Shown one piece after another: positions 23,748-36,128 of a DNA stretch of 64,000 nucleotides. Position numbers and translations under genes: made by a program. Position 1 is the first letter of the stretch. Every line of letters starts with the position of its first letter. The DNA is from Vulcanimicrobiota bacterium (GTDB taxonomy: Bacteria; Vulcanimicrobiota; Vulcanimicrobiia; Vulcanimicrobiales; Vulcanimicrobiaceae), in contig OY970223.1 of the NCBI GenBank assembly GCA_963714015.1, positions 3,200,001 through 3,264,000 of the forward strand, read 5' to 3'. The notes beneath the pieces were generated by a model. That model was not told the DNA's origin. It did no database searches and worked only from the letters and a program-made list of their open reading frames with translations.

Positions 23748-24755
23748 ATGCGTCCTTTTCGGCTTCTTGGGGCTCTCGGTGCCCTCGTCGCTCTCTCAGC
23801 CGTCATTGCCTGCGGAGGCGGCGGCGGCACGTCGACACCTCCTGTCGGAGCTCCCTCGTCTAACCCGGGGGGGAGCCCCGGACCGGGCGGAAGCTCCAGT
23901 CCGCCCTCGTCCGGCTCGCCTTCGCCGACCTCCACACCGCGCGATACTCCGGTGCCGACGCGAACACCGATCTCGACGGCGACCCCAAGTCCCGTACCGA
24001 CCAGCACGGCGCCCCCTACACCCTATCCCTCGCCCTCGGGCACGCCCAACCCAACTCTCACCGTGACCACCGGTCATGGCGAAATCAATGGGACGGACGA
24101 TCAATTCACCGGCGGTATCGGTAAGGAAATCGGCGACGGCGACTATCCGGACGGCGGTCAAGGACCGGTCAACACCACATTCGGACCGGACAACGTGCCG
24201 TGTCTGGCGCAGATGTACGACGGACCGGTTCCACCCGGTTACCACGTTCACGCGTTCTTGGGCATCTATTACAACGGCACCGAAATTGCGATGCCGGACG
24301 GCGTCGGCATTGCCGACCCGGAAGGCGACATCACGTATCAGGGCATTCCGAATTGGACGCAGTACTCGTACGATCCCAATAACCCCGGAAAATCCGGCTG
24401 CTTCTATCAAATTCACACGCACGATCCGAGCGGTACGATTCACATTGAATCGTCGAATCCCAACAGCGTTCCGTTGACCGGCACGATATACACGCTGGGA
24501 GACGTGCTCGCGCTGTGGGGTATTCCGATTTCTTCCACGCAGTTTGGACCGTTCAGCGGCCAGATTCAAGTCTTCACCTCCGGCCAAATCCCCCGTTTCA
24601 AGCAAGGGGAGGTCGGATCCAACACGTACACGCTGTACAACGGCGACATGAGAAACATCGCGCTGTACACGCACGAAGTAATCTGGGTTCTGATTGGCAC
24701 GGGCAACCCGACGTACGCAGCGCTTCCCAACGTCGGTTTCTGGGATGAGTACTGA
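23748..24755 (+). CDS. Lipoprotein with Pro/Ser/Thr linker and His-motif domain
   Basis: Lipobox VIAC; HVHAFL...CFYQIHTHDPSGTIHIE. Confidence 0.8.
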   Translation: MRPFRLLGALGALVALSAVIACGGGGGTSTPPVGAPSSNPGGSPGPGGSSSPPSSGSPSPTSTPRDTPVPTRTPISTATPSPVPTSTAPPTPYPSPSGTPNPTLTVTTGHGEINGTDDQFTGGIGKEIGDGDYPDGGQGPVNTTFGPDNVPCLAQMYDGPVPPGYHVHAFLGIYYNGTEIAMPDGVGIADPEGDITYQGIPNWTQYSYDPNNPGKSGCFYQIHTHDPSGTIHIESSNPNSVPLTGTIYTLGDVLALWGIPISSTQFGPFSGQIQVFTSGQIPRFKQGEVGSNTYTLYNGDMRNIALYTHEVIWVLIGTGNPTYAALPNVGFWDEY

Positions 24756-24777: not shown

Positions 24778-24809
24778 AAGGTTCGCTCGAAAGAGCGGGC
24801 CTTTTCTTT
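24778..24809 (+). terminator. Intrinsic terminator
   Basis: AGGTTCGCTC-GAAA-GAGCGGGCCT followed by TTTCTTT. Confidence 0.7.
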
Positions 24810-24826
24810 AACGAATACTGGAGAGG

Positions 24827-25363
24827 ATGAGACGAGCGCTCCCGCTGTGGATCGCCGCGGTGGTGCCGGCAACATTGGCTGGGCACAGCCTGGCGTATGC
24901 GCTCAACCGCCAGTCCGCTTCGGGCTCGCAGCACATGTGGATGCAACCCACGTGGGAGGCGTCGCTTTCGGTGTTGTCGGCAATCTGCGCTGTCTGCATC
25001 GGCGGCGCGCTGATTCGGGCCGGAATTCTGAGGCACAGCGCCGTGGAAGGGCGTTTCAATCTGCTGTGGCCCCGAATGGCCTTCGCCCAGGTCGTGCTTT
25101 TCGCACTAGCGGAGCATGCAGAAGGTGCGCGAGTCGGGCTATCCGCTCTCGCCGTACAAGTGCTCGTCGCCGCTTTCGCCGCCGCGCTCGTTGCTTTGTT
25201 CGCGCGTCTGCTGCGGCGCTGCATCGATGCGGCCGAAGAAGCGAGCCGGTATCTGGAACGCTTGCTGAAGTTCGGCTCTACCTTTGTGCCGCGCCGCCGC
25301 GTGCGGCCTTCATTCGCTTTGGAGATAAGCGCGGGAACCGCGCGCTTTCAACGACCGCCTCCG
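24827..25363 (+). CDS. Membrane leader protein 1 ending in RPPP (putative arrest peptide); in this sequence it reads in frame into the next gene
   Basis: GGAGAGG SD; ~4 TM segments with AGH.LAY, H.W, Q..LF...E..E; basic linker then ARFQRPPP; parallels 28611-29120. Confidence 0.7.
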
Positions 25364-25414
25364 TCCGAATCAGCTCGTTTCCGCCTTTTAGTCATCACCC
25401 AAGCTATTCGGAGG
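25364..25414 (+). promoter_or_regulatory. SD-sequestering hairpin after RPPP codons
   Basis: TCCGAAT(C)AGCT 25364-25375 pairs with AGCTATTCGGA 25402-25412, which overlaps the GGAGG at 25410-25414. Confidence 0.65.
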
Positions 25415-25420
25415 TTTTCC

Positions 25421-27193
25421 GTGTATCGCATGACGACAATGTTCGCGCGCGTGTTCGCAGGCGCAGCCCTTACCGTGATGCTGTGTACTGCGCGCGCATA
25501 CGCCGTGCCCGTCTTTGCAAACGGTCAGGGAATATCGTGTGAGACCTGCCACACGACCTTTCCCGGCATGACGCGCTACGGAATGATGGTCATGATGACG
25601 AATTTTCAGATATTGAACCGCCATCTCCAGGATCAGGCGCTTCCGATTTCGGCGCGCATATACATTCAGTCGCTTCTGGCAAACAAAGACCACCCGGGCA
25701 ATACCATGGTTTCCGATCTGTCGCTCCTGGGCGGCGGCTTTTTGGGACGCAACTTCACCTGGTACACGGAGCAGCACGTCATCGATTCCGGGGTTATCGG
25801 TCAGACGGAGCAGGTTTGGCTTTCGTGGAACGGCCTGCTGCACGGAACCAATTCGATCCAGGTCGGAAAGTTTCACACGCCGTTCCCATTCATGCCGGCG
25901 CACGCGTGGACGATCAGCCCGTATCTGCTTGCAGCGCAAACGACCGGCCAGAATGATTTCAATCCGAATGACGCGCGGTGGGGCGTTGCGTTCAACGGAA
26001 TGTCCAACGAGTTCATGTACAATCTCTCGTGGCTCACCGGAAGCGGATCGACCGGCGACGCGCTGGACTACAACCAAACGCGCAATCCACGAACAATCGA
26101 CGCAAACGTCTCCTACGGCGGCATGTCCATCCCCTGGAGCGTAGGGCTGGTCGGGATACGCGGCTGGGCGCCGCTAAGCGATACCGCAACCGGAGATTTT
26201 CTGGGCACCGATCCGTTCAGTCGCGAAGGCGTGTACTTCGGCTATCAGACCAACGCATGGCACTATCAAAGCATGTATTACCATGGATTCGACGCCAATC
26301 CGGACGTGGGCCTCGCCGACGTTCCGATGAACGGGTTTTTCTTCGAAGCCGAACGAGATTTGGGGTGGCAAAACCACATTCTGCTGCGCTATGACGTCGC
26401 ATCGAGCGATACGCTGAATCGCCAAATCGTCTTCGATCTCTCGCACAACGTGTTGCCGAACCTCGCGCTGATAGGCGAACTCGCGGGTTATCCCAACGCG
26501 CGTCCGCAGATTGCGTTTCAAATCGCATACGCAGGACCGTACCAATTCGGAAAGCGGTATCTCTCCAATCTGCACGTCGCGCCGGTGGGCGGAGAAGGCA
26601 CTTCAAACAGCGCCTCGGCAACAGCCGCACCCGCCGCAAGTTCAGCGCCCGCGGCGGAGAACTCCGCAGCACCGGGCAATGCGTCCGCCGGGGCCGCCTT
26701 GGTTCAGGCCAACGGCTGCGAAGGCTGCCATGGCGCGGCACTGAAGGGCGGCGGTGTTGGTCCGGCGCTCTACGGCGTCGAGCACAAACTTACGGCGGAT
26801 CAGATCGCGAACGCCATTCGGAACCCGAAAGCGCCGATGCCGAACTTCGGTTTCAGTCAGGCGCAGATCGCCGATCTGGTCGCGTATCTTTCGAATCTCG
26901 ACGGCGGTCAGACCGGACAGCAACCAGTAGTCACGTTCAATCCGGCGAAGCCGACGGATATCGCCACGATCTCAATTCGCTTCCCGGGAACTCCGCCGAA
27001 GTCGGTTCGCGTTCTGCCGATCATGCAGATGGGAAAAAGCACGATGCAGACGCGCGAGATAACGCTTCAGCCGTCATCGGGCGATCCGAACGTATTCACG
27101 GGACAAATCGTCTTTTCGATGGGCGGCCCGTGGACGGTGCACGTCGAGTACGACGGCAACACGATGGACGTTCCGTTGAACGTGGGACAGTGA
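25421..27193 (+). CDS. Cyc2-like cytochrome c-porin fused to a second class I cytochrome c and a YtkA/FixH-like domain
   Basis: Own SD + GTG; signal peptide ending AYA; AVPVFANGQGISCETCHTTFPGMTRYG; aromatic beta-barrel-like region (IQVGKFHTPFP); A/S/P linker; CEGCHG...GPAL...PMP; MQM...FSMGGPW. Confidence 0.75.
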   Translation: MYRMTTMFARVFAGAALTVMLCTARAYAVPVFANGQGISCETCHTTFPGMTRYGMMVMMTNFQILNRHLQDQALPISARIYIQSLLANKDHPGNTMVSDLSLLGGGFLGRNFTWYTEQHVIDSGVIGQTEQVWLSWNGLLHGTNSIQVGKFHTPFPFMPAHAWTISPYLLAAQTTGQNDFNPNDARWGVAFNGMSNEFMYNLSWLTGSGSTGDALDYNQTRNPRTIDANVSYGGMSIPWSVGLVGIRGWAPLSDTATGDFLGTDPFSREGVYFGYQTNAWHYQSMYYHGFDANPDVGLADVPMNGFFFEAERDLGWQNHILLRYDVASSDTLNRQIVFDLSHNVLPNLALIGELAGYPNARPQIAFQIAYAGPYQFGKRYLSNLHVAPVGGEGTSNSASATAAPAASSAPAAENSAAPGNASAGAALVQANGCEGCHGAALKGGGVGPALYGVEHKLTADQIANAIRNPKAPMPNFGFSQAQIADLVAYLSNLDGGQTGQQPVVTFNPAKPTDIATISIRFPGTPPKSVRVLPIMQMGKSTMQTREITLQPSSGDPNVFTGQIVFSMGGPWTVHVEYDGNTMDVPLNVGQ

Positions 27194-28614
27194 TGCGCCG
27201 ATCCGCCTTTTTGCGGATCGGTACGGGGACGATGGTTGCCGCGGCTCTTCCATCGATGTCGCGCCGCGCACTGGCGGCGGACGTTGTCGACTACAAGCTC
27301 ACCGCGTCGCCTCTGGCATTTGCGCCTGCGCCGAACATGCAGTTTCCGGGGCTGGCGTTCAATGGAACGATTCCAGGCCCCCTACTGCGCATCGTGCATG
27401 GTCAGCGCCTGCGGGCGCTCTTCATAAACAACTGCGGACAGCCGGCGACGATCCATTGGCACGGTATGATTCTTCCGAACAATATGGACGGCGTCGAAGG
27501 CGTGACGCAGGCCGCAGTTCCCGATCGGGAGACGTTTCTTTACGAATTCACGCCCGGTCCGCCCGGAACGCGCTGGTATCACGACCACGTCAGCGACGGA
27601 GTCGCCCGGGGGTTGTTCGGGCTGATCGTCGTCGAAGATCCAAAAGACGAGCCGGCCGACGCCGAATTCGCACTGGTCTTTCACGACGTGCCGAGGCTTG
27701 CCACGATTCAAGCGGCCATGATGGGCGTGAGCGCTGCACCAATGGTGGACCCCATCGGATCCCCCGAAATGACGTCGATGCAGCCCAACGACAAGATGGG
27801 CGACGAAGTGGCATACAGCGCGCACTGCATCAACGGGCAGACATATCCGAATACGCAAAAGCTTGCCGTAAAAGTCGGCCAGCGCGTGCGTCTGAGAATA
27901 TTGAACGCAAATCCGACGCAGACGCGCTATGTTCGGCTCGCCGGACATTCACTGACCGTGACGCACTGCGACGGCAACCTGATGGATCAGCCGGTTACGG
28001 TAGACGCGCTGCGCGTCGGAGTTGCAGAACGGTACGACGCGTGGTTTACCGTCACGGAACCGGGTGCGTGGCTGTTGCAAGGACTCTCCAGCGAGCCGCT
28101 CGCCTATCAGCAGGCGGCTGTCGTGCACACTCCGGGAATGGAAAACGCCCCTCCGCTTTCTTCGCCTGAGACACTCGAGGGCGTCCGGTATTTCACGTAC
28201 GAGATCGCCGGGGCCGCGCTCGGTCCGGGCACCGGTGACATGCTAGCGGCACATTCATTCGTTCTGGGCGGCGGCAAGTATGCCAGCAACAAGTGGACCA
28301 TAAACGGAAAGACCTACCCGAACACACCGAAAATTTACGTTCATCGCGGCGACCGGGTCACCGTGCACTTCAAAAACACTACCGATATGGACCATCCCAT
28401 GCATCTGCACGGTCACGTTTTTCGTTTAACCAGCGTAGATGGTAAGAGGCTGACCCGCCCGCTGCCCAAAGACACCTCGCTGGTCCGTTCCAACGGCGGA
28501 ACGGCGGAATGGGAGTTCGTGGCGGATTCACCCAAGGGACGTTGGCTGTTGCATTGCCATAACGAGATTCATATGATGGACGGGATGATGACGGAGGTAG
28601 TCTACCGCTCGTGA
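27193..28614 (+). CDS. Tat-exported multicopper oxidase
   Basis: MRRSAFL Tat motif; HWHG, WYHDH, HPMHLHGH, HCHNEIHMMDGMM copper motifs; TGATG overlap with upstream gene. Confidence 0.95.
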   Translation: MRRSAFLRIGTGTMVAAALPSMSRRALAADVVDYKLTASPLAFAPAPNMQFPGLAFNGTIPGPLLRIVHGQRLRALFINNCGQPATIHWHGMILPNNMDGVEGVTQAAVPDRETFLYEFTPGPPGTRWYHDHVSDGVARGLFGLIVVEDPKDEPADAEFALVFHDVPRLATIQAAMMGVSAAPMVDPIGSPEMTSMQPNDKMGDEVAYSAHCINGQTYPNTQKLAVKVGQRVRLRILNANPTQTRYVRLAGHSLTVTHCDGNLMDQPVTVDALRVGVAERYDAWFTVTEPGAWLLQGLSSEPLAYQQAAVVHTPGMENAPPLSSPETLEGVRYFTYEIAGAALGPGTGDMLAAHSFVLGGGKYASNKWTINGKTYPNTPKIYVHRGDRVTVHFKNTTDMDHPMHLHGHVFRLTSVDGKRLTRPLPKDTSLVRSNGGTAEWEFVADSPKGRWLLHCHNEIHMMDGMMTEVVYRS

Positions 28615-29120
28615 GGAGCCGCCTCGGCCGGAAAATCTGGACCGCAGCGCTGCTGGGATTGCCCGCAGCGTTGTTTGCGCACGTCATCGTATTCGGCGGC
28701 GAGCATACGCTCGGCGGCTCCGCACATTCGTGGCTGCTCGAGTTCGGCGGGGTCTTCGCATTCCTCGGCACGCTCGTTGCGGCGATCGGCGCCGTGCGAC
28801 GGTCGACGGCAGTCGTCCCGAAATTCGCGCCGATTCTCACAGGCGCCGCAGGCTGGTTCGGCATTATCGAGCTCTGCGAGAGCGCGCACGGTATCCCCAT
28901 TGCGGCGGTCATCGCTGCTCTCGTCTTCGCCGCGTGGATCGTCCGCGCCGTGCTTTCGGCATTCGCGCACACCGTCGCCGCTATCGCGGCAATTCTTCAA
29001 CTATACCTTAGAGCCGCCAAGCCTCCGGCACCGGCTCTAATAAAACGGGCCGTGCCGCGCGCGCATTCATGCGTGCACCGGCTGCGCTTGTTCTCTCGGC
29101 CGCCGCCTCTCTTCGCTTAA
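28611..29120 (+). CDS. Membrane leader protein 2 ending in RPPP (putative arrest peptide)
   Basis: ~4 TM segments with FAH...H......HSW and E.CE..HG; C-terminus HRLRLFSRPPPLFA*; directly upstream of the TBDR. Confidence 0.75.
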   Translation: MRSRLGRKIWTAALLGLPAALFAHVIVFGGEHTLGGSAHSWLLEFGGVFAFLGTLVAAIGAVRRSTAVVPKFAPILTGAAGWFGIIELCESAHGIPIAAVIAALVFAAWIVRAVLSAFAHTVAAIAAILQLYLRAAKPPAPALIKRAVPRAHSCVHRLRLFSRPPPLFA

Positions 29121-29192
29121 ACGCCGCGTCCACTGGGACGCCCGCGCGCAAGCTCTTGCGCGTTTCTTTCACATACAACTGCGTTTAAGGAA
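29112..29192 (+). promoter_or_regulatory. Multi-branch RNA structure sequestering the TBDR SD
   Basis: CTTAAACGC 29116-29124 is the exact reverse complement of GCGTTTAAG 29181-29189, which overlaps TAAGGA; encloses hairpins at 29126-29141 and 29145-29162, the latter followed by TTTCTTT. Confidence 0.7.
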
Positions 29193-29199
29193 AAATTTC

Positions 29200-31632
29200 A
29201 TGTCTAGAATTCTCGCGGCGCTGCTTGCCGCGTTTATCACAATCACGGCGCTGCCGGCGATGGCGGATACGATCGGTATCGTTCGCGGAACGGTCGAAGT
29301 CAACGGCAAGCCGGCGGCCGGCGTTAAAGTCACGCTCAGCGGCGAAGGCACCGTCGACCAGCGCAAGACCGACGAGGGCGGTACTTATATTTTCTCCGGC
29401 GTACAGTTCGGCAGCTATACGCTCACAGCCGACTATCCGGGCGTCGCGCCCCGTACGGTTCAACTGTCGGTTTCCTCCGATCAAGTTCTCACCGTCAACA
29501 TGGCGCTCGGCGAGCTCAAAACGATCGGAAGCGCAACCGTTACGGCTCACGCAGGCGTGAGCGGCACACCGGTCTCGGTAAACGACGTCACCAAGCAGCA
29601 GATCGCCGCTCTCCCCATCAACAACAGCCTGAATCAGCTCGTTCAGACTGTGCCCGGCGTCGTACGGTTCTCCTATAACGAGCCGGTCGCGCACGGGTTC
29701 CATGGCGTGACGTACGAAATGGACGGCGCGCCGATGCCGCTTGCGACCAGTTCGAACTTCGCCGAGATCATCGATCCCAAGAACATCGACTCTTTGGAAA
29801 TCTTCACCGGCGCGATTCCCGCCGAGTACGGCGGAAACCGCGAAGGTGCGGTCGTGAATATCATCAGCAACCGCGCGAGCGATCTGACGGCACCTTACGA
29901 GGGTTACTTCACGACCGGCGGCGGGAGCTTTGGTCAGGTGGTGAACAGCTTCGACAACGCATTCAAAACTGGCAAGACCGAGATCTTCCTGAACGCGAAC
30001 ACGCAGGTGGGCAGTCGCGGCCTGGACACGCCGACTGTCACCCCGATTCATGACGAGAACTCGCAGTCGGACGAGTTTCTGCGAACGATTACCACGTTCA
30101 ACGATCGGCAGTCGCTGGCGTTCGACGTCTCCAATCAGCTGGCGCAGTTCCAGATCCCGATGAACACGAACCCCAACGATCCGACCGACCCGCAATTCAA
30201 CGTTCCGGCTACGGACGACGTTCAGCGCGAATACGACCGCTATGCGAGTCTGAATTTCACGAGCTCGTCGAAAGACGGGAACGGCATCTTCCAGCTCATT
30301 CCTTGGGTCCGCTCCACACGCATTGCCTACGACGGCGACTTACAGAACGACGTTCTGGGCTTGACTAATCTGGGACCGTGCTCCGGTCAGAGCCCGGCGC
30401 CGTCGTTCTGCACGAGCGCCAATCCCGATGCTCCGGTTTACCAAAGCGCGATCGGGCTCAAGCAGGACCGCAAAGCCAACTACGTCGGCCTTCGCGTGTC
30501 GGACTTCCGGGCCACTTCGCACCACGCGTTCAAGGTTGGATTGGACGCGAACCGTGAAATCCTGACCGCGGACGAAACGTTCGCGTGCTACGACCCCACT
30601 TGCAATACGGTGGTACCCGGGTACCCCTTACCGCCGGCGGCTTCGTTCACGACGAACACCACGAACCAGGATCAGGCCGGGACGCAAGTGGGTCTCTATG
30701 CGCAAGACAAGTGGACGCCCTCGCAGCAGTTGTCCGTGGACTACGGACTTCGCTACGATCGCTCGACCGGTTACGTCGGCGGCGATCAATTGAGCCCACG
30801 CATCGGCGTAAACTATGCTCCCGACAGCACGAACGTCATCCATGCGTACTACGGCCGCTTCTACGCCGCACCGCAGCTCGAGGACGTCCGTCAAGCGTGC
30901 GTCGTTCTGCAAGGCTGCTCGGGAACCCCGACGTATGACCTCAAGCCGGAGACCGACTCGTATGCGGAGATCGGATTGTCGCACACGTTCTCACCGAGGC
31001 TGAGCGTCTACGTCAACCAGTGGGAACGCTACGTGAGCAACGTTTTGGATACCACGCAGCTCCTGAATACACCGCTGTTCGCCGTGTACAACAACGCGAT
31101 CGGCCGCGCGCGCGGAACCGAGGTCAGGATGCAGGCCAAGCTCCATAAGGCGGACACGTGGTTCATTTCGGGAACGTGGTCCAATTCGCTCGCGGCCGGC
31201 ATCTCGGGATCGACGTTCCTCTTCCCGCCCTCGCAGCAGACTGTTCCAGGGGTTCCGCTGATCGACCAGCTCTCGCCGGAAGATCACAGCGAAGCAGTCG
31301 CGGTGAATTCCGCCTACACGCATCGCTTCGGTTTGAATGAGGCGTATTACGCAACGATCGAGGGCGAGTACGGAACGGGGTTCCCCGTGAGCTTCGAGGG
31401 TCTCGTAAACGGCCAGCCCGTCGGATTCAGCGGCACGCTCCCGACGCACTTGACCGCAGACCTGGCTCTTGGGCGCGATCCGGGCCGCAACGGCGATCGC
31501 TCATTGGGCTACGATCTAAGCATCCAGAACCTGTTCAACGATCGGTACATCATCAAAATCGCCAACGGGTTCAACACGACGCAGTACTCGCAAGGGTTCA
31601 ACGCGCTCTTCCGCGTGACCGCGCCGCTGTAG
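29200..31632 (+). CDS. TonB-dependent receptor
   Basis: Signal peptide, carboxypeptidase-regulatory-like domain, plug (IDSLEIFTGAIPAEYG), LYAQDKW, GLRYD, LSPRIG, IQNLFN. Confidence 0.93.
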   Translation: MSRILAALLAAFITITALPAMADTIGIVRGTVEVNGKPAAGVKVTLSGEGTVDQRKTDEGGTYIFSGVQFGSYTLTADYPGVAPRTVQLSVSSDQVLTVNMALGELKTIGSATVTAHAGVSGTPVSVNDVTKQQIAALPINNSLNQLVQTVPGVVRFSYNEPVAHGFHGVTYEMDGAPMPLATSSNFAEIIDPKNIDSLEIFTGAIPAEYGGNREGAVVNIISNRASDLTAPYEGYFTTGGGSFGQVVNSFDNAFKTGKTEIFLNANTQVGSRGLDTPTVTPIHDENSQSDEFLRTITTFNDRQSLAFDVSNQLAQFQIPMNTNPNDPTDPQFNVPATDDVQREYDRYASLNFTSSSKDGNGIFQLIPWVRSTRIAYDGDLQNDVLGLTNLGPCSGQSPAPSFCTSANPDAPVYQSAIGLKQDRKANYVGLRVSDFRATSHHAFKVGLDANREILTADETFACYDPTCNTVVPGYPLPPAASFTTNTTNQDQAGTQVGLYAQDKWTPSQQLSVDYGLRYDRSTGYVGGDQLSPRIGVNYAPDSTNVIHAYYGRFYAAPQLEDVRQACVVLQGCSGTPTYDLKPETDSYAEIGLSHTFSPRLSVYVNQWERYVSNVLDTTQLLNTPLFAVYNNAIGRARGTEVRMQAKLHKADTWFISGTWSNSLAAGISGSTFLFPPSQQTVPGVPLIDQLSPEDHSEAVAVNSAYTHRFGLNEAYYATIEGEYGTGFPVSFEGLVNGQPVGFSGTLPTHLTADLALGRDPGRNGDRSLGYDLSIQNLFNDRYIIKIANGFNTTQYSQGFNALFRVTAPL

Positions 31633-32752: not shown

Positions 32753-33523
32753 ATGAGCCAGCCAACGCGCGCAGAACGCCGCCGGAACGCCCGCGGCGGG
32801 TCCACTCCGCCCCCGGCCAAACGCGATCCGATGACGCCGATTTATATCGGATTCGCCGTCGTGATCGTTTTGGTGCTTGCCGGGTTCGGCATCTCGAATT
32901 ACATCACGAATCACGCGCGAGCGCAGGCCATCGCCTTCGACCTTTCCACGCCGACGCCCGGACCGTCACCGACCACCAAACCCGTGCAGCTGCAACCGGG
33001 ACAAACGGTCGGAAAACCGATCTTCGGAATCCCCACGCCGAATCCGCAAAAAGGTATTCTCCCCGACACTGCGACCGGAGGCCACGGTCAAACCATCGAC
33101 GGCATTCCCTGCGAAGCAACCGAAGCCGTCGCATTGCACGTTCACAGCCATCTGTCGGTTCTGGTCAACGGCTCGCCGCTGCAGATTCCCGCCTACATCG
33201 GCATTGCGTTGAGCGGACCGCAGCAGTCGTGCCTCTACTGGATTCATACGCACGACGCCAGCGGCGTCATCCACGTCGAAGCCGGCGACGTCACCGCCCC
33301 GAACGGCGGCCCCTTCACCATCGGCAACTTCTTCGACATTTGGGGTGAACCGCTAACGAACGATCAAGTCGGGCCGTTCAAAGGCAAAGTCACCGCGTTT
33401 GTCAACGGACAGGCGTACAACGGCGATCCGCGCAGCATTCCGCTGCGCGCGCACCAAGGCATCGTCCTTGAAGTAGGCCGCGTCGTACCGCCGCCGACGT
33501 ATCTGATTCCCTCCGGGGAGTAA
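32753..33523 (+). CDS. Membrane-anchored His-motif domain protein, paralog of 23748-24755
   Basis: Single TM; HVHSHL...CLYWIHTHDASGVIHVE...FTIG.FF.IWG. Confidence 0.8.
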   Translation: MSQPTRAERRRNARGGSTPPPAKRDPMTPIYIGFAVVIVLVLAGFGISNYITNHARAQAIAFDLSTPTPGPSPTTKPVQLQPGQTVGKPIFGIPTPNPQKGILPDTATGGHGQTIDGIPCEATEAVALHVHSHLSVLVNGSPLQIPAYIGIALSGPQQSCLYWIHTHDASGVIHVEAGDVTAPNGGPFTIGNFFDIWGEPLTNDQVGPFKGKVTAFVNGQAYNGDPRSIPLRAHQGIVLEVGRVVPPPTYLIPSGE

Positions 33524-33549: not shown

Positions 33550-34116
33550 TCAGCGGAGTGCCGATTCGATAGCCGCGGACAGTTCGCCGTATGGCGTTTC
33601 GCCGCTTCCGGCGTAGTCGATAGTTTTGTTGCGCGCGATGACGACGAGGGTCGGAAATCCGCTCTGGAGATACTCGCGCGCCACGGTAAGCGAGGGATCG
33701 TACGCGGCGGGATACTGAACGTTGAATCGCTGGATAAATGTAAGAACGTCCTGAGGACTTGACTGGCTTTGTCCGTCCATTGCCCTGTTGCTGCCGCTGA
33801 CGGCGACGAATTGGACGCGGTTCTTGTACGCTTGATAAAGCCGATCGATAATCGCGGTTTCACGCTGGCAGTGCGGGCACCACGTTGCGAAGATCTCGAG
33901 GAACACCGGACGGTTTGTTGCGGCGAGATTGAAATAGCCCCGATCTGTGGCCGCCGTGAATTGCGGCGCCTTCTGACCTTTCTGCAGCGCCGCTTGGGGC
34001 GGCGCCTGCACGGCGCTGGACTTTACGCCGCCATTGTTTGCATAACGGATCGCGGCGTAAATACCGATCGCGATGACGACCAGCGTAACGACGATCCACG
34101 TATTTCTGTTCTTCAT
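33550..34116 (-). CDS. TlpA/ResA-like thiol-disulfide oxidoreductase
   Basis: N-terminal anchor; FATWCPHC; cis-Pro GFPT. Confidence 0.9.
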   Translation of the reverse strand: MKNRNTWIVVTLVVIAIGIYAAIRYANNGGVKSSAVQAPPQAALQKGQKAPQFTAATDRGYFNLAATNRPVFLEIFATWCPHCQRETAIIDRLYQAYKNRVQFVAVSGSNRAMDGQSQSSPQDVLTFIQRFNVQYPAAYDPSLTVAREYLQSGFPTLVVIARNKTIDYAGSGETPYGELSAAIESALR

Positions 34117-34562
34117 GAGCTCCTCATGCGTCTATCGAGTGCGTATAGTCCTGGGGCTCCCCAAGCAACGACGACGCAAAGTGCCGCGAGCACCAAGTCC
34201 ACGGCAACGTGCGGCCAGTCCGCCGTCGCGCTGTCTTGCGGACCAAAGCATCCGCAATTTGCGGCAATATGGCGCACGACGGCGGAGGCGATAGCGGCCG
34301 CGTAGATCGTGAGTTGCAACGCGCCGACGGCTGCTGTCCAACGCGTGAAGAGTCCGGCGATCAAGTACAGGCCCAACAAAAGTTCGAAAAACGGCAGCAG
34401 CACGGCAATCGGACCTACGACGCTCGCCGGCAGGATGCGAAAGCCCGCGATAGCCGCTGCGAGCTCGTTGAAATGGCCGACCTTCAACGCACCGGCTGTA
34501 AGGAACAGCGCACCAATCAATACGCGCACTGCAAGGATGGCTGCGGCCTGCTTGCGCTCCAT
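34113..34562 (-). CDS. MauE/DoxX-family membrane protein
   Basis: R..IG.LFL.AG.LK, LP..E..LG, CGCFG. Confidence 0.85.
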   Translation of the reverse strand: MERKQAAAILAVRVLIGALFLTAGALKVGHFNELAAAIAGFRILPASVVGPIAVLLPFFELLLGLYLIAGLFTRWTAAVGALQLTIYAAAIASAVVRHIAANCGCFGPQDSATADWPHVAVDLVLAALCVVVAWGAPGLYALDRRMRSS

Positions 34563-34621
34563 CACGTCATAATCCGTCTCCTGCGCAGTTTTTCCTCGAT
34601 TTGCGGCGTAGACTACGGCGC

Positions 34622-35176
34622 ATGACCAAGTGCTGGCTGCCGGCGGCGCTTCTGCTGCTCGCCGCATGCGCCGCGCGCCCTGCTCTTCACGGCACGACGC
34701 TTTCGCCGCCGAAACCGGCCCCGAACTTCGTGCTGCGCGATCAATACGGGCACAGGTTCTCCCCGGCCCGCTCTCGGGGCTCTGCGATTGCCTTGTACTT
34801 TGGCTTCACGCATTGTCGCGACATCTGTCCGGCAACGCTTCGTCTGCTCCAACGAGCCCGTTCGCGCGCCCACCTGAGGGACACACAACTGCGGTTGGTG
34901 ATGATCACCGTCGACCCGAAGCATGACGACGCGCGTGCCTTTCAAAAGTTTTTTCGGCGGACGGGCGTACGGGCTTTGGGTTTGACCGGGCAGCGGGTGG
35001 AGCTGACGCGCGTCTACAAGGCTTACGGAGTGGCCGTTGAGCCGCGATCGCGCGATATCGTGCACTCCGACGTCGTCTACTTGATCGATCCGCAAGGAAG
35101 GCTGCGCGAGCTCATCACGCCCGACACTGCGCTCAATGACGTTGCGCAGGACCTGCGCACGGTCGTAGACTCGTAG
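34622..35176 (+). CDS. SCO-family copper chaperone lipoprotein
   Basis: Lipobox LAAC; FGFTHCRDICP, TVDP.HD, IVHS..VYLIDP.G. Confidence 0.92.
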   Translation: MTKCWLPAALLLLAACAARPALHGTTLSPPKPAPNFVLRDQYGHRFSPARSRGSAIALYFGFTHCRDICPATLRLLQRARSRAHLRDTQLRLVMITVDPKHDDARAFQKFFRRTGVRALGLTGQRVELTRVYKAYGVAVEPRSRDIVHSDVVYLIDPQGRLRELITPDTALNDVAQDLRTVVDS

Positions 35177-35177
35177 C

Positions 35178-36128
35178 ATGCTCTTGCCGCTGCTCGCGCT
35201 GCTGGCTTCCACCATCCCGGTGCACGGAACCGTGCTTGCGCCCGGACGCGCTGAAACGGTTATCGTCCGTTTGGATCAGGTGACCGGCATGGTGCCGGCT
35301 CAGACGAGAGCCGTGCGGCTCAGCCCGCCTTTGCAGGTGCCGGCCGGAACGGGAATCGATGCTTTCTTGGATCGTACCGCGACGCCGTGGGAGCTCTATG
35401 ACAGCACTGTTACGGGAAGATTCGTCGCGGGGTTGCCCGACACGGGCAAGGTCATTCCGATCGATCTCGGATCGCGCCTACCGGCAACGCAGCTCGTCGA
35501 CCAGCGCGGAGCGATGGTCGATCTAGCCTCGAGTTTCCGCGGTAAAGTCAACCTGATCAGTTTCGTTTTCACCAGATGCCCGGACAAAGACGAGTGCCCC
35601 CTCATCAGCGCAAAATTCTCGGAACTCCAGCGCGAGCTGGATCCGTCGCACTTTCACCTCATCGAAATTACGCTGGACCCCTCTTACGATTCGCCCGCAG
35701 TGCTCGCTGCCTATGCTCGCACGTTTCAAGCGCAGGCCGGTTCCTGGTCGATCGTCACCGGGCAGGGCCACCAGATCGCGCATCTGCTCAACGCGTTCGG
35801 CATCTCTTCATTGCGCGTGGGCGATGCGCAATTCGACCACAACGACAAAGTGTTCCTGACGGATCCGTCGGGAAGGGTGGCGGACATCGTCCAGACCGCT
35901 GCTTTCAGTCCTTCAAATCTGGCCGCCGAGGCAAAACATCTGGCAGGCCTGGCTTCCGATCCCTTCGGAAGGTGGGAGCTTTCGCTCATCGCCTCGGTGG
36001 CCGCTATGTGCGGCGGAAGTCAGTTTGCCGGCGTAGTGTTGTTGGAAACGATGCTGTTCTTGCTGATCGCGGTGGTTTCGTTTACGACTCTCGCCTGGGT
36101 TGCGCGTAAATTCTGGAAAAACGCGTGA
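35178..36128 (+). CDS. SCO-family protein with extra N-terminal domain and C-terminal TM
   Basis: FVFTRCPDKDECP, ITLDPSYD.P, DHN...L.DP.G. Confidence 0.85.
   Translation: MLLPLLALLASTIPVHGTVLAPGRAETVIVRLDQVTGMVPAQTRAVRLSPPLQVPAGTGIDAFLDRTATPWELYDSTVTGRFVAGLPDTGKVIPIDLGSRLPATQLVDQRGAMVDLASSFRGKVNLISFVFTRCPDKDECPLISAKFSELQRELDPSHFHLIEITLDPSYDSPAVLAAYARTFQAQAGSWSIVTGQGHQIAHLLNAFGISSLRVGDAQFDHNDKVFLTDPSGRVADIVQTAAFSPSNLAAEAKHLAGLASDPFGRWELSLIASVAAMCGGSQFAGVVLLETMLFLLIAVVSFTTLAWVARKFWKNA

Follow-up and report, generated by a model that had tools for sequence, protein, structure and literature searches.

In SecM and MifM, ribosome arrest near the C-terminus of a leader melts a hairpin that hides the next gene's Shine-Dalgarno (SD) sequence, and this SD-freeing logic has been shown for SecM/secA and CutF/cutO, as described in the relevant sections of three reports (PMC9973294; bioRxiv 10.1101/2025.02.05.636593; PMC12992588). 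The study of arrest leaders that sense conditions beyond the cytoplasm is young, with CruR (2022), CutF (2023-2025) and a survey of RAPP tails (2025). We analyzed a window of 64,000 nucleotides (nt) from a Vulcanimicrobiota bacterium (contig OY970223.1, assembly GCA_963714015.1), in which positions 24827-31632 of the forward strand hold five tightly packed genes: leader 1, the cytochrome protein gene cytP, a multicopper oxidase gene, leader 2, and a TonB-dependent receptor gene. Both leaders are membrane proteins with four predicted transmembrane (TM) helices and an R-P-P-P tail. They are a real, conserved feature and form a family that is new, although regulators of this kind have recently been described and the principle is therefore not new. 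We consider it likely, from conserved sequence and by analogy, that a programmed ribosome stall at R-[P/A]-P-P unmasks translation of the downstream gene, with a periplasmic ligand possibly tuning the pause. This mechanism appears well supported by comparison among related loci; the metal that we propose as the ligand is a reasoned guess.

The logic proposed here is that of SecM and MifM. However, those leaders target SecA and YidC2 and are cued by translocation or insertion, whereas the targets here comprise a receptor, a cytochrome protein and a multicopper oxidase, which are proteins of the outer membrane or related to copper and not protein localization machinery. CutF of Rhodobacter capsulatus, a DUF2946 protein encoded upstream of CutO, resembles our leaders in its C-terminal PPP, in its SD-hiding stem-loop and in regulating a multicopper oxidase (PMC9973294). 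In the parts of the later account that concern sensing, CutF is proposed to sense on the periplasmic side while still on the ribosome, and elongation factor P (EF-P) is expected to matter (bioRxiv 10.1101/2025.02.05.636593). CutF differs in being a Sec-exported soluble protein with a CxxxC motif and the DUF2946 domain, whereas our leaders have four TM helices, with His and Glu instead of Cys; here, moreover, the cytochrome protein directly follows leader 1 and the oxidase is coupled after it. The anti-SD of CutF is a CTTC in the spacer (PMC9973294), whereas in leaders of the first type the Pro codons themselves are the anti-SD.

CruR of Bordetella pertussis, also of DUF2946, is likewise a small protein, with R-A-P-P three residues from its end, encoded directly upstream of the TonB-dependent transporter BfrG (PMC9426467; PMC12992588). 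The CruR/DUF2946 proteins share with our family a fixed spacing between metal motif and arrest motif (CXXC to RAPP in their case; PMC9426467), and a minority of our family also carries RAPP. CruR differs in its signal peptide, its CXXC motif, its Rho-dependent termination over a 162-nt spacer and the lack of an EF-P effect, as described in the sections on it (PMC9426467; PMC12992588). In the present family, in contrast, 47-91 nt separate the Pro run from the next start codon in 31 of 32 loci (232 nt in locus L010), and the SD is paired. The DUF2946 Pfam model matched neither leader of the window (E <= 0.01) nor any of 46 aligned family members (E <= 1). The four predicted hydrophobic helices in place of a Sec-exported soluble domain, and the lack of an invariant Cys (CXXC/CxxxC), set the family apart from DUF2946, with which it shares a Pro-rich or RAPP motif near the stop codon and a place directly upstream of a metal-related gene.

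Fujiwara et al. (2025) described small proteins, either secreted or in the membrane, that bear RAPP/RGPP tails and are encoded upstream of TonB-dependent receptors, of copper genes and, in the wider class, of YcnI and PCu(A)C genes; their leaders of TonB-dependent receptors are almost all signal-peptide proteins, not TM bundles, in the parts of the survey that treat them (PMC12992588). The same source describes SLIV_18480 of Streptomyces lividans as a four-TM protein with three His and one Met, and reports in vitro arrest for a four-TM, His-bearing S. lividans protein (PMC12992588). The S. lividans set and our family are alike in their polytopic four-TM build, conserved His, R-x-P-P tail, metal-related downstream genes and proposed role as metal sensors; the comparison with SLIV_18480 itself is made from its published description. 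The survey differs in having extracted RAPP and RGPP only, and its main text contains neither "RPPP" nor "Eremiobacter" (PMC12992588). Against the definition of RAPP-like arrest peptides, R-[A/G]-P-P (or RAPG/RAGP) at the C-terminal end, our family is mostly R-P-P-P, as detailed below, while its downstream genes fall within the range given for RAPP-like arrest peptides (same direction; sec, TonB-dependent receptor or copper genes). RAPP arrest is established for ApdA/ApdP and was shown for CruR, where the P and A sites of the stalled ribosome hold the two Pro codons (PMC12992588), RPPP was among the RAPP-like search strings of Fujiwara et al. (2024) (PMC10987492), and RPPP is described as the strongest X-PPP staller in E. 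coli, where it is under-represented (PMC4176338).

The initial annotation of this DNA had not recognized the leader family as characterized. Indeed, neither leader matched any Pfam or NCBIfam model, and we found no published account of this family or design in full-text literature searches, in which some papers were judged by title or the start of the abstract. The kind of regulator, however, was already in print (PMC12992588).

Leader proteins and their conserved tail

Both leader reading frames singled out by the initial annotation are present, each with four predicted TM helices, and most of the shared layout that it described was borne out. TM1 ends with a His (H20 of leader 1 and H24 of leader 2), a loop carries a second His (H36 and H39), and TM3 ends with E-x-x-E (E96/E99 and E87/E90), followed in both proteins by a basic linker and F-x-RPPP. 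Of the proposed H-x-W loop motif, the His is common to both leaders, but the Trp is conserved in the leader-1 family only. The two had also been called twins, a kinship that is visible at the level of profiles, where hhalign joined the N-terminal 77 columns of the leader-1 and leader-2 family profiles (84.9% probability, E = 6.5e-6), whereas BLASTP aligned F-x-RPPP alone (E = 0.1). The best explanation of these similarities is that leaders 1 and 2 are probably distant paralogues (~20% identity) within one family of inner-membrane proteins of ~170-185 amino acids (aa).

Conservation is concentrated in the His/Glu residues and the tail. The 27 homologues of leader 2 (157-184 aa) have invariant H24, H32, H39, W82, F83, E87, E90 and S-R-P-P-P. 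The leader-1 family (39 homologues, 40 sequences aligned) has invariant E96, E99, G100, R176, P178 and P179, its residue 177 being Pro except in 3 proteins, which have Ala (RAPP). When 46 sequences were aligned jointly, P18, H24, H39, F83, E87, E90, R163, P165 and P166 were invariant, and a search of 1.84 billion proteins with the profile of this alignment matched at least 284 representative clusters (E <= 0.001). Among the best 150 of these 284 matches, 147 carried R-x-P-P 0-9 residues before the C-terminus (141 RPPP and 6 RAPP), and the remaining 3 look truncated. RAPP occurs also in loci L014 and L016. At the level of the DNA, the stop codon lies at most 8 codons past the motif in 18 of 20 leader-2-type loci and at most 4 codons past it in 13 of 16 distinct leader-1-type loci.

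Among 301 genomes of the phylum, 163 had a match. Of the 206 genomes that belong to the same taxonomic family as the window, 157 were positive, as were all 3 of a sister family in that order; the 91 genomes from 19 other families gave two weak matches only (E about 5e-4). Almost all hits fall in one order of Eremiobacterota/Vulcanimicrobiota. The named records are metagenome-assembled genomes (MAGs) of Vulcanimicrobiaceae, Baltobacteraceae, Eremiobacteraeota or Vulcanimicrobiota, and a search of related loci with the leader-2 alignment gave 9 loci, in MAGs labelled Baltobacteraceae, Eremiobacteraeota, Vulcanimicrobiota or "bacterium". The family tallies take in unpublished genomes (G023, G030, G206, G231, G248, G260 and G286), as do the locus counts (L009 of G030, L032 of G023 and L034 of G031). 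Leads from the ESM Atlas comprised unnamed Vulcanimicrobiota, Actinomycetota and Planctomycetota clusters at 0.92-0.93 and DUF6412 at 0.82, with a query recognition of 2244, below the 2300 mark.

AlphaFold2 predicted four long helices for leader 2 (residues 2-28, 37-63, 72-89 and 97-136; pLDDT 82, pTM 0.70) and the same four-helix plan for leader 1 (pLDDT 75, pTM 0.55), with low confidence in both models for the tail past the last helix. Lys and Arg are concentrated in the N-terminus, loop 2 and the tail, and not in loops 1 and 3, a distribution that fits a protein with both ends in the cytoplasm and the invariant His/Glu on the outer, periplasmic face. A Foldseek search of the PDB with the leader-2 model returned nothing at E <= 0.001 and gives no fold assignment; the highest-ranked entries, globins and other bundles of helices, had E > 1. 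Among 207 proteins examined, all 167 with both motifs had 72-79 residues between the second Glu of E-x-x-E and the Arg of the tail motif, and the sequence of this linker is poorly conserved. The ribosomal exit tunnel holds roughly 30-40 residues. In the predicted models, TM4 would therefore have only just cleared the tunnel by the time the ribosome arrives at the motif, so that the whole bundle could sit in the membrane, and a His/Glu site could form and tune the pause through a periplasmic ligand, most likely copper. His and Glu are typical metal ligands, and because invariant outward-facing His/Glu, fixed spacing to the motif and copper-linked neighbouring genes occur together, a periplasmic metal, with copper as the first candidate, would be the most likely modulator. 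The arrest, its consequence for translation of the next gene, the ligand and whether the response is positive or negative are matters that we infer.

The arrest switch could also be real and its cue something other than a metal, namely membrane insertion or folding, the envelope or redox state, or haem, read through pulling force. SecM and MifM do respond to translocation or insertion force, according to the passages that discuss them (PMC12992588; bioRxiv 10.1101/2025.02.05.636593). The fixed spacing that places TM4 just outside the tunnel at the stall would suit such a cue, as would the c-type cytochrome downstream and the receptor, whose best NCBIfam similarity, below the cut-off, is to haem/haemoglobin receptors. 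We nevertheless regard a non-metal cue as unlikely, given downstream genes that are not Sec or YidC components, invariant residues of the kind that bind metals, and the copper-linked genes around the locus. Nothing was found for or against a haem-binding (cytochrome b-like) role of the His residues.

The end of leader 1 required separate attention. The initial annotation had ended leader 1 at 25363 and overlooked that, as assembled, it has no in-frame stop codon; the frame 24827-27193 remains open through cytP and encodes 788 aa. A Logan contig from the soil metagenome run X1 (252 nt, depth 4.7) spans 25189-25441 with no mismatches and has one base fewer, at 25371. Without this base, leader 1 is a 181-aa protein with a stop two codons after PPP, and the bulge in the downstream stem is gone; the bulged C that had been bracketed in the initial annotation is the very base absent from the contig. 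The 39 leader-1 homologues in the database are all ~180 aa long and end 0-6 residues past the motif. Because of this contig, together with the lengths and stop positions of the homologues, we read the extra base as a probable assembly insertion or a strain variant, a correction that comes from a single contig of depth 4.7, which may share its sample with the assembly. Contigs of X1 span only parts of the stretch, and runs X2 and X3 yielded short, unlike pieces only. One inserted assembly base would thus hide the leader stop and lead to annotation of a 788-aa fusion. The completeness of the closed genome, 89.6%, would fit scattered indel errors. In another locus (L019, G011:C1:931851-932363), the leader stops 36 codons past PPP, inside the receptor gene, and has an out-of-frame TAA where close relatives stop, which may be a further assembly indel.

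Predicted pairing of the tail codons with the downstream Shine-Dalgarno sequence

In the mechanism that we propose, the ribosome would pause or arrest on the tail [F/Y]-x-R-[P/A]-P-P, a few residues before the stop codon. The mRNA that it then holds, either CCUCC of the Pro codons or the following two to three codons plus the stop, would serve as the 5' arm of a helix in which the next gene's SD forms the 3' arm. While the ribosome is parked the SD would be free, and once it has gone the helix would re-form and hide the SD again. The sequence motif expected of an X-PPP stall, three Pro with Arg at -1, is present in both leaders.

Both stems of the window lie where the initial annotation had placed them, that of leader 1 pairing 25364-25375 with 25402-25412 over the cytP SD and that of leader 2 pairing 29116-29124 with 29181-29189 over the receptor SD. 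If positions are counted as in toeprinting, a ribosome whose P and A sites contain the final two Pro codons would reach about 15 nt past the P-site codon. It would hence cover the entire arm of leader 1 and, in leader 2, positions 29112-29119, which are the bases that hold the SD. Measured against shuffled sequences, the two stems fared differently: the leader-2 spacer folded at -37.9 kcal/mol (z = -3.6), and 0 of 200 shuffles were as good, but the leader-1 hairpin alone did not exceed chance (z = -0.97), since 31 of 200 shuffles did as well. With the stems of the window mixed in this respect, support beyond chance comes from recurrence across loci.

We compared 32 loci from related genomes in which the motif and the next start codon could both be placed (left out were L012, L035 and L036, where no motif was found; L027, whose motif near the start of a short locus was missed by the filter; and L037, which equals L032). 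In the minimum free energy (MFE) fold, at least 3 bases of the SD core were paired with positions -8 to +10 around the last Pro codon in 27 of the 32 loci. The duplex of the 36-nt arm region with its own SD region averaged -17.3 kcal/mol, compared with -13.0 kcal/mol for the SD regions of other loci, and the mean of the matched arms was reached by 0 of 20000 permutations (31 loci, L010 omitted). For the 24 nt after the Pro run alone, the corresponding means were -12.6 and -9.8 kcal/mol, again with 0 of 20000 permutations. By prediction and comparison, then, pairing of the SD with mRNA that a stalled ribosome would occupy, as in SecM and MifM, is far more frequent at these loci than at the other junctions of the genome described next.

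Several observations weigh against our interpretation. The same pairing test was positive at 41 of 203 other same-strand junctions of this genome (20%), a background drawn from crude calls of open reading frames (ORFs), and in 5 of the 32 loci the SD is unpaired with the arm in the MFE fold. The junctions of the genome average -14.1 kcal/mol and 22% of them reach -17.3 kcal/mol, so the energy alone is unexceptional, and since the loci are related, they are less independent than the permutation, Fisher and binomial figures suggest. Covariation is impossible in the CCUCC:GGAGG core of the leader-1 type, both of its sides being constrained, and this core is expected with any CCU-CCN Pro pair; the chance-level leader-1 hairpin belongs on this side also. 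Stalls at PPP are normally relieved by EF-P, which the genome encodes (efp, 79.8 bits, over the cut-off), so a strong arrest is not guaranteed, although by analogy with CutF the pause may be sensitive to EF-P. It is also not obvious why an oxidase, which serves detoxification, and a receptor, which serves uptake, should obey one control logic within the same operon. Finally, the case for metal binding consists of the conserved His/Glu and the neighbouring genes.

The pairing takes two forms. In the leader-1-type design, CCUCC of the Pro codons pairs with GGAGG. The flanks of this core vary, and in 7 of 13 loci the first base past the Pro run forms AU, UA, CG, GC or GU. The other design, that of most leader-2-type loci, has an arm made of the last two or three codons and the stop, and its sequence differs by locus (as in the folds of L001, L005, L008, L013 and L007). 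When the stem of the window was imposed on 11 leader-2-type spacers, 84.8% of cells were paired, compared with 77.9% in shuffles and 29-60% when the partner was slid by 1-3 columns; 4 pairs and 10 cells were changed on both sides, which 0 of 500 shuffles reached, all of these being numbers flattered by the relatedness of the loci and by the origin of the imposed stem in one of the 11 sequences. RNAalifold found no consensus structure (0 pairs) in the same 11 spacers, because the arms shift register and the inner parts vary in length. The initial annotation had held that the two stems share position and function and not sequence, and the comparison is in keeping with this: predicted SD-occluding pairing recurs with different sequences across loci, and some pairs are changed on both sides. 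The twin order of leaders recurs in four more genomes.

These comparisons bear on the view that the tail is a docking or degradation motif of the protein and the SD pairing a by-product of Pro codons that resemble an anti-SD. CCUCC is inherently complementary to GGAGG, and the core pairs of the leader-1 type never vary, as this view would have it. However, the leader-2-type arm mostly follows the Pro codons, differs by locus and shows the changes on both sides just described. Codon choice points the same way, in that the rare codon CCT accounts for 32 of 94 motif Pro codons compared with 8.6% of Pro codons genome-wide, about a four-fold enrichment, and the middle Pro codon ends in U, facing the A of GGAGG, in 11 of 13 leader-1-type loci. 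Nor would a protein-level motif account for its position, which is never more than 9 residues before the stop and, with the exception of L010 (232 nt), lies 47-91 nt ahead of the next start codon. We regard this explanation as highly improbable.

Plain translational coupling is another reading: a ribosome finishing the leader would melt the stem, and the Pro run would only widen the time window, with neither a ligand nor a regulated arrest. The stop codon overlies the stem at most leader-2-type loci, so that a terminating ribosome would open the stem anyway; the rest of the operon is joined by overlapping stop and start codons, and the encoded EF-P would relieve PPP pauses. Coupling of this kind leaves unexplained, however, why [F/Y]-x-R-[P/A]-P-P is invariant (147 of 150 representatives, with RAPP as the sole substitute), why the outward His/Glu are invariant and why the two motifs are kept 72-79 residues apart. 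We judge coupling without regulation to be quite unlikely.

We also considered that the main output might be transcriptional, as in CruR, with the lead ribosome deciding on termination in the spacer, at a hairpin or through Rho, and SD masking being secondary. The leader-2/receptor spacer contains a terminator-like hairpin at 29144-29163 (8 pairs, tetraloop), followed by the T-rich TTCTTTCAC, and GC-rich inner hairpins, some with T-runs, were seen by eye in other spacers (for example L002, L018 and L028). CruR itself acts by Rho-dependent termination upstream of a TonB-dependent transporter, as described in its report (PMC9426467). In contrast, leader-1-type spacers are short (about 50-65 nt) and mostly without such a hairpin, and a ribosome on the Pro codons of leader 2 would be short of the hairpin, which lies 36 nt downstream. 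The terminator scan, moreover, yields consensus matches only, with 14 sites compared with 7.6 expected from region shuffles. A mainly transcriptional output is thus improbable to us, and the hairpin at 29144-29163 leaves room for a transcriptional layer, by analogy with CruR, on top of the proposed translational switch.

Operon organization and neighbouring genes

The features of the operon are collected in Table 1. The hairpin ahead of leader 1 probably marks the start of a new transcription unit. GTG at 25421, six bases 3' of GGAGG, is the likely start of cytP. The oxidase begins within the cytP stop codon (TGATG, 27191-27195), and the GTG start of leader 2 overlaps the oxidase stop as GTGA (28611-28614), so that leader 2 may be translated only as far as leader 1 permits. 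In our model, the length of the pause on leader 1 would set translation of cytP and of the coupled oxidase and leader 2, and a second pause, on leader 2, would set translation of the TonB-dependent receptor.

Table 1. Features of the leader operon, in positions of the window.
Feature	Position	Strand	Basis or remark
Terminator-like hairpin with T-run	24785..24800	+	Consensus scan only; after upstream gene 23748-24755
Leader 1, four-TM His/Glu membrane protein, tail ...ARFQ-RPPP-SE	24827..25369	+	Start ATG 24827; ORF, 39 homologues, AlphaFold2
Leader 1 codons R176-P177-P178-P179 (CGA CCG CCT CCG)	25352..25363	+	Proposed stall site; CCTCCG doubles as anti-SD
Putative leader-1 switch, 5' arm: Pro codons and next four codons, including questionable C 25371	25358..25375	+	
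Putative leader-1 switch, 3' arm, including cytP SD GGAGG (25410-25414)	25402..25414	+	
cytP: exported, signal peptide, N-terminal C-x-x-C-H, about 400 unassigned aa, C-terminal cytochrome c domain	25421..27193	+	Domain scan
Multicopper oxidase, RR-type (Tat-like) N-terminus	27193..28614	+	ATG overlaps cytP stop
Leader 2, 169-aa four-TM His/Glu membrane protein, tail ...RLRLFS-RPPP-LFA-stop	28611..29120	+	ORF, homologues, AlphaFold2
Leader 2 codons R163-P164-P165-P166	29097..29108	+	Proposed stall site
Putative leader-2 switch, 5' arm: last two sense codons, TAA stop and four more bases	29112..29124	+	Folds, pair counts
Two inner hairpins inside the long-range stem (29126-29141, 29144-29163)	29126..29163	+	Fold, consensus scan
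Putative leader-2 switch, 3' arm, including receptor SD AAGGA, eight bases 5' of ATG 29200	29181..29192	+	
TonB-dependent receptor: N-terminal CarboxypepD_reg, plug, barrel	29200..31632	+	Domain scan

The same arrangement is found elsewhere in the phylum. As the initial annotation had anticipated, homologues that keep the His/Glu and R-[P/A]-P-P beside the stop stand upstream of TonB-dependent receptors or of a cytochrome/multicopper-oxidase pair. Among 27 downstream proteins scanned, 17 were CarboxypepD_reg/Plug receptors, 5 had a cytochrome c domain, 3 shared an N-terminal P-V-F-A-N-G-Q..C-x-x-C-H start and 2 were other proteins; each leader type was found with both types of target. The order leader 1, cytP, oxidase, leader 2, receptor recurred in 4 of 4 further genomes (G241, G099, G267 and G219), which had been picked for two family matches about 3.7 kb apart. 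In these four operons, every leader-1 tail stops two codons past PPP and its CCUCC pairs with GGAGG in the predicted fold. L048 and L049 show a clear leader-2 stem and L050 a weak one, and the leader-2 junction of L051 was not picked up by the script.

From this tandem order a more elaborate version of our model can be drawn, in which each operon would contain two paralogous co-translational sensors, the bundle tethered to the ribosome would form a periplasm-facing His/Glu metal site, the stall codons or their neighbours would serve as the anti-SD in one and the same element, and the two diverged sensors could give the oxidase/cytochrome module and the uptake receptor different thresholds or opposite responses. 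We put this version forward tentatively, as a possibility that is more doubtful than not. If it is true, it would amount to two-step control of metal balance, free of any protein acting in trans, in an uncultured phylum.

The initial annotation had called the product of cytP a cytochrome-porin. The cytochrome c domain is present, but the porin label is a lead from the ESM Atlas only, where the N-terminal part lies beside unnamed Vulcanimicrobiota clusters and one cluster with Porin_O_P on 20% of its members; the N-terminal 415 aa (25421-26665) had no Pfam match. Beginning 2 kb downstream of the receptor gene, 33550-36128 encodes a redoxin (-), a MauE/DoxX protein (-) and two SCO1/SenC proteins (+). 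These are copper- and thiol-handling genes and support a copper theme for the neighbourhood.

The operon is flanked by two proteins without any Pfam or NCBIfam match (23748-24755 and 32753-33523, both +), each with a hydrophobic N-terminal segment, then a Pro/Ser/Thr/Gly-rich linker, and a common C-terminal I-H-T-H-D-x-S-G-x-I-H. The second of these and the neighbouring epimerase gene stay beside the receptor gene in G241 and G267. Outside the window, the same genome contains a third candidate arrest leader (G000 996680-997243, +; L052:1181-1744), a hydrophobic protein of 187 aa that ends K-R-G-P-P-L-stop and has no Pfam-independent NCBIfam match. A 902-aa ORF (L052:1793-4501) that looks like a TonB-dependent receptor by reading alone begins 49 nt downstream of it. 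In the crude ORF set of this genome, this candidate and leader 2 were the only proteins with R-[APG]-P-P at most 12 residues from the end.

Meaning for the Eremiobacterota

To the arrest leaders that report on the world outside the cytoplasm, this family adds a sensor fold unrelated to DUF2946, clear cases of Pro codons that double as an anti-SD, and a natural tandem of two diverged sensors in one operon. Because RPPP replaces RAPP/RGPP in its tail, surveys restricted to those two strings miss it. The Eremiobacterota have few cultured members, so regulation in this phylum can at present be read from sequence only, and the proposed leader switch would give a candidate function to a conserved "hypothetical protein" that some three quarters (157/206) of the sampled genomes of one Eremiobacterota family encode.

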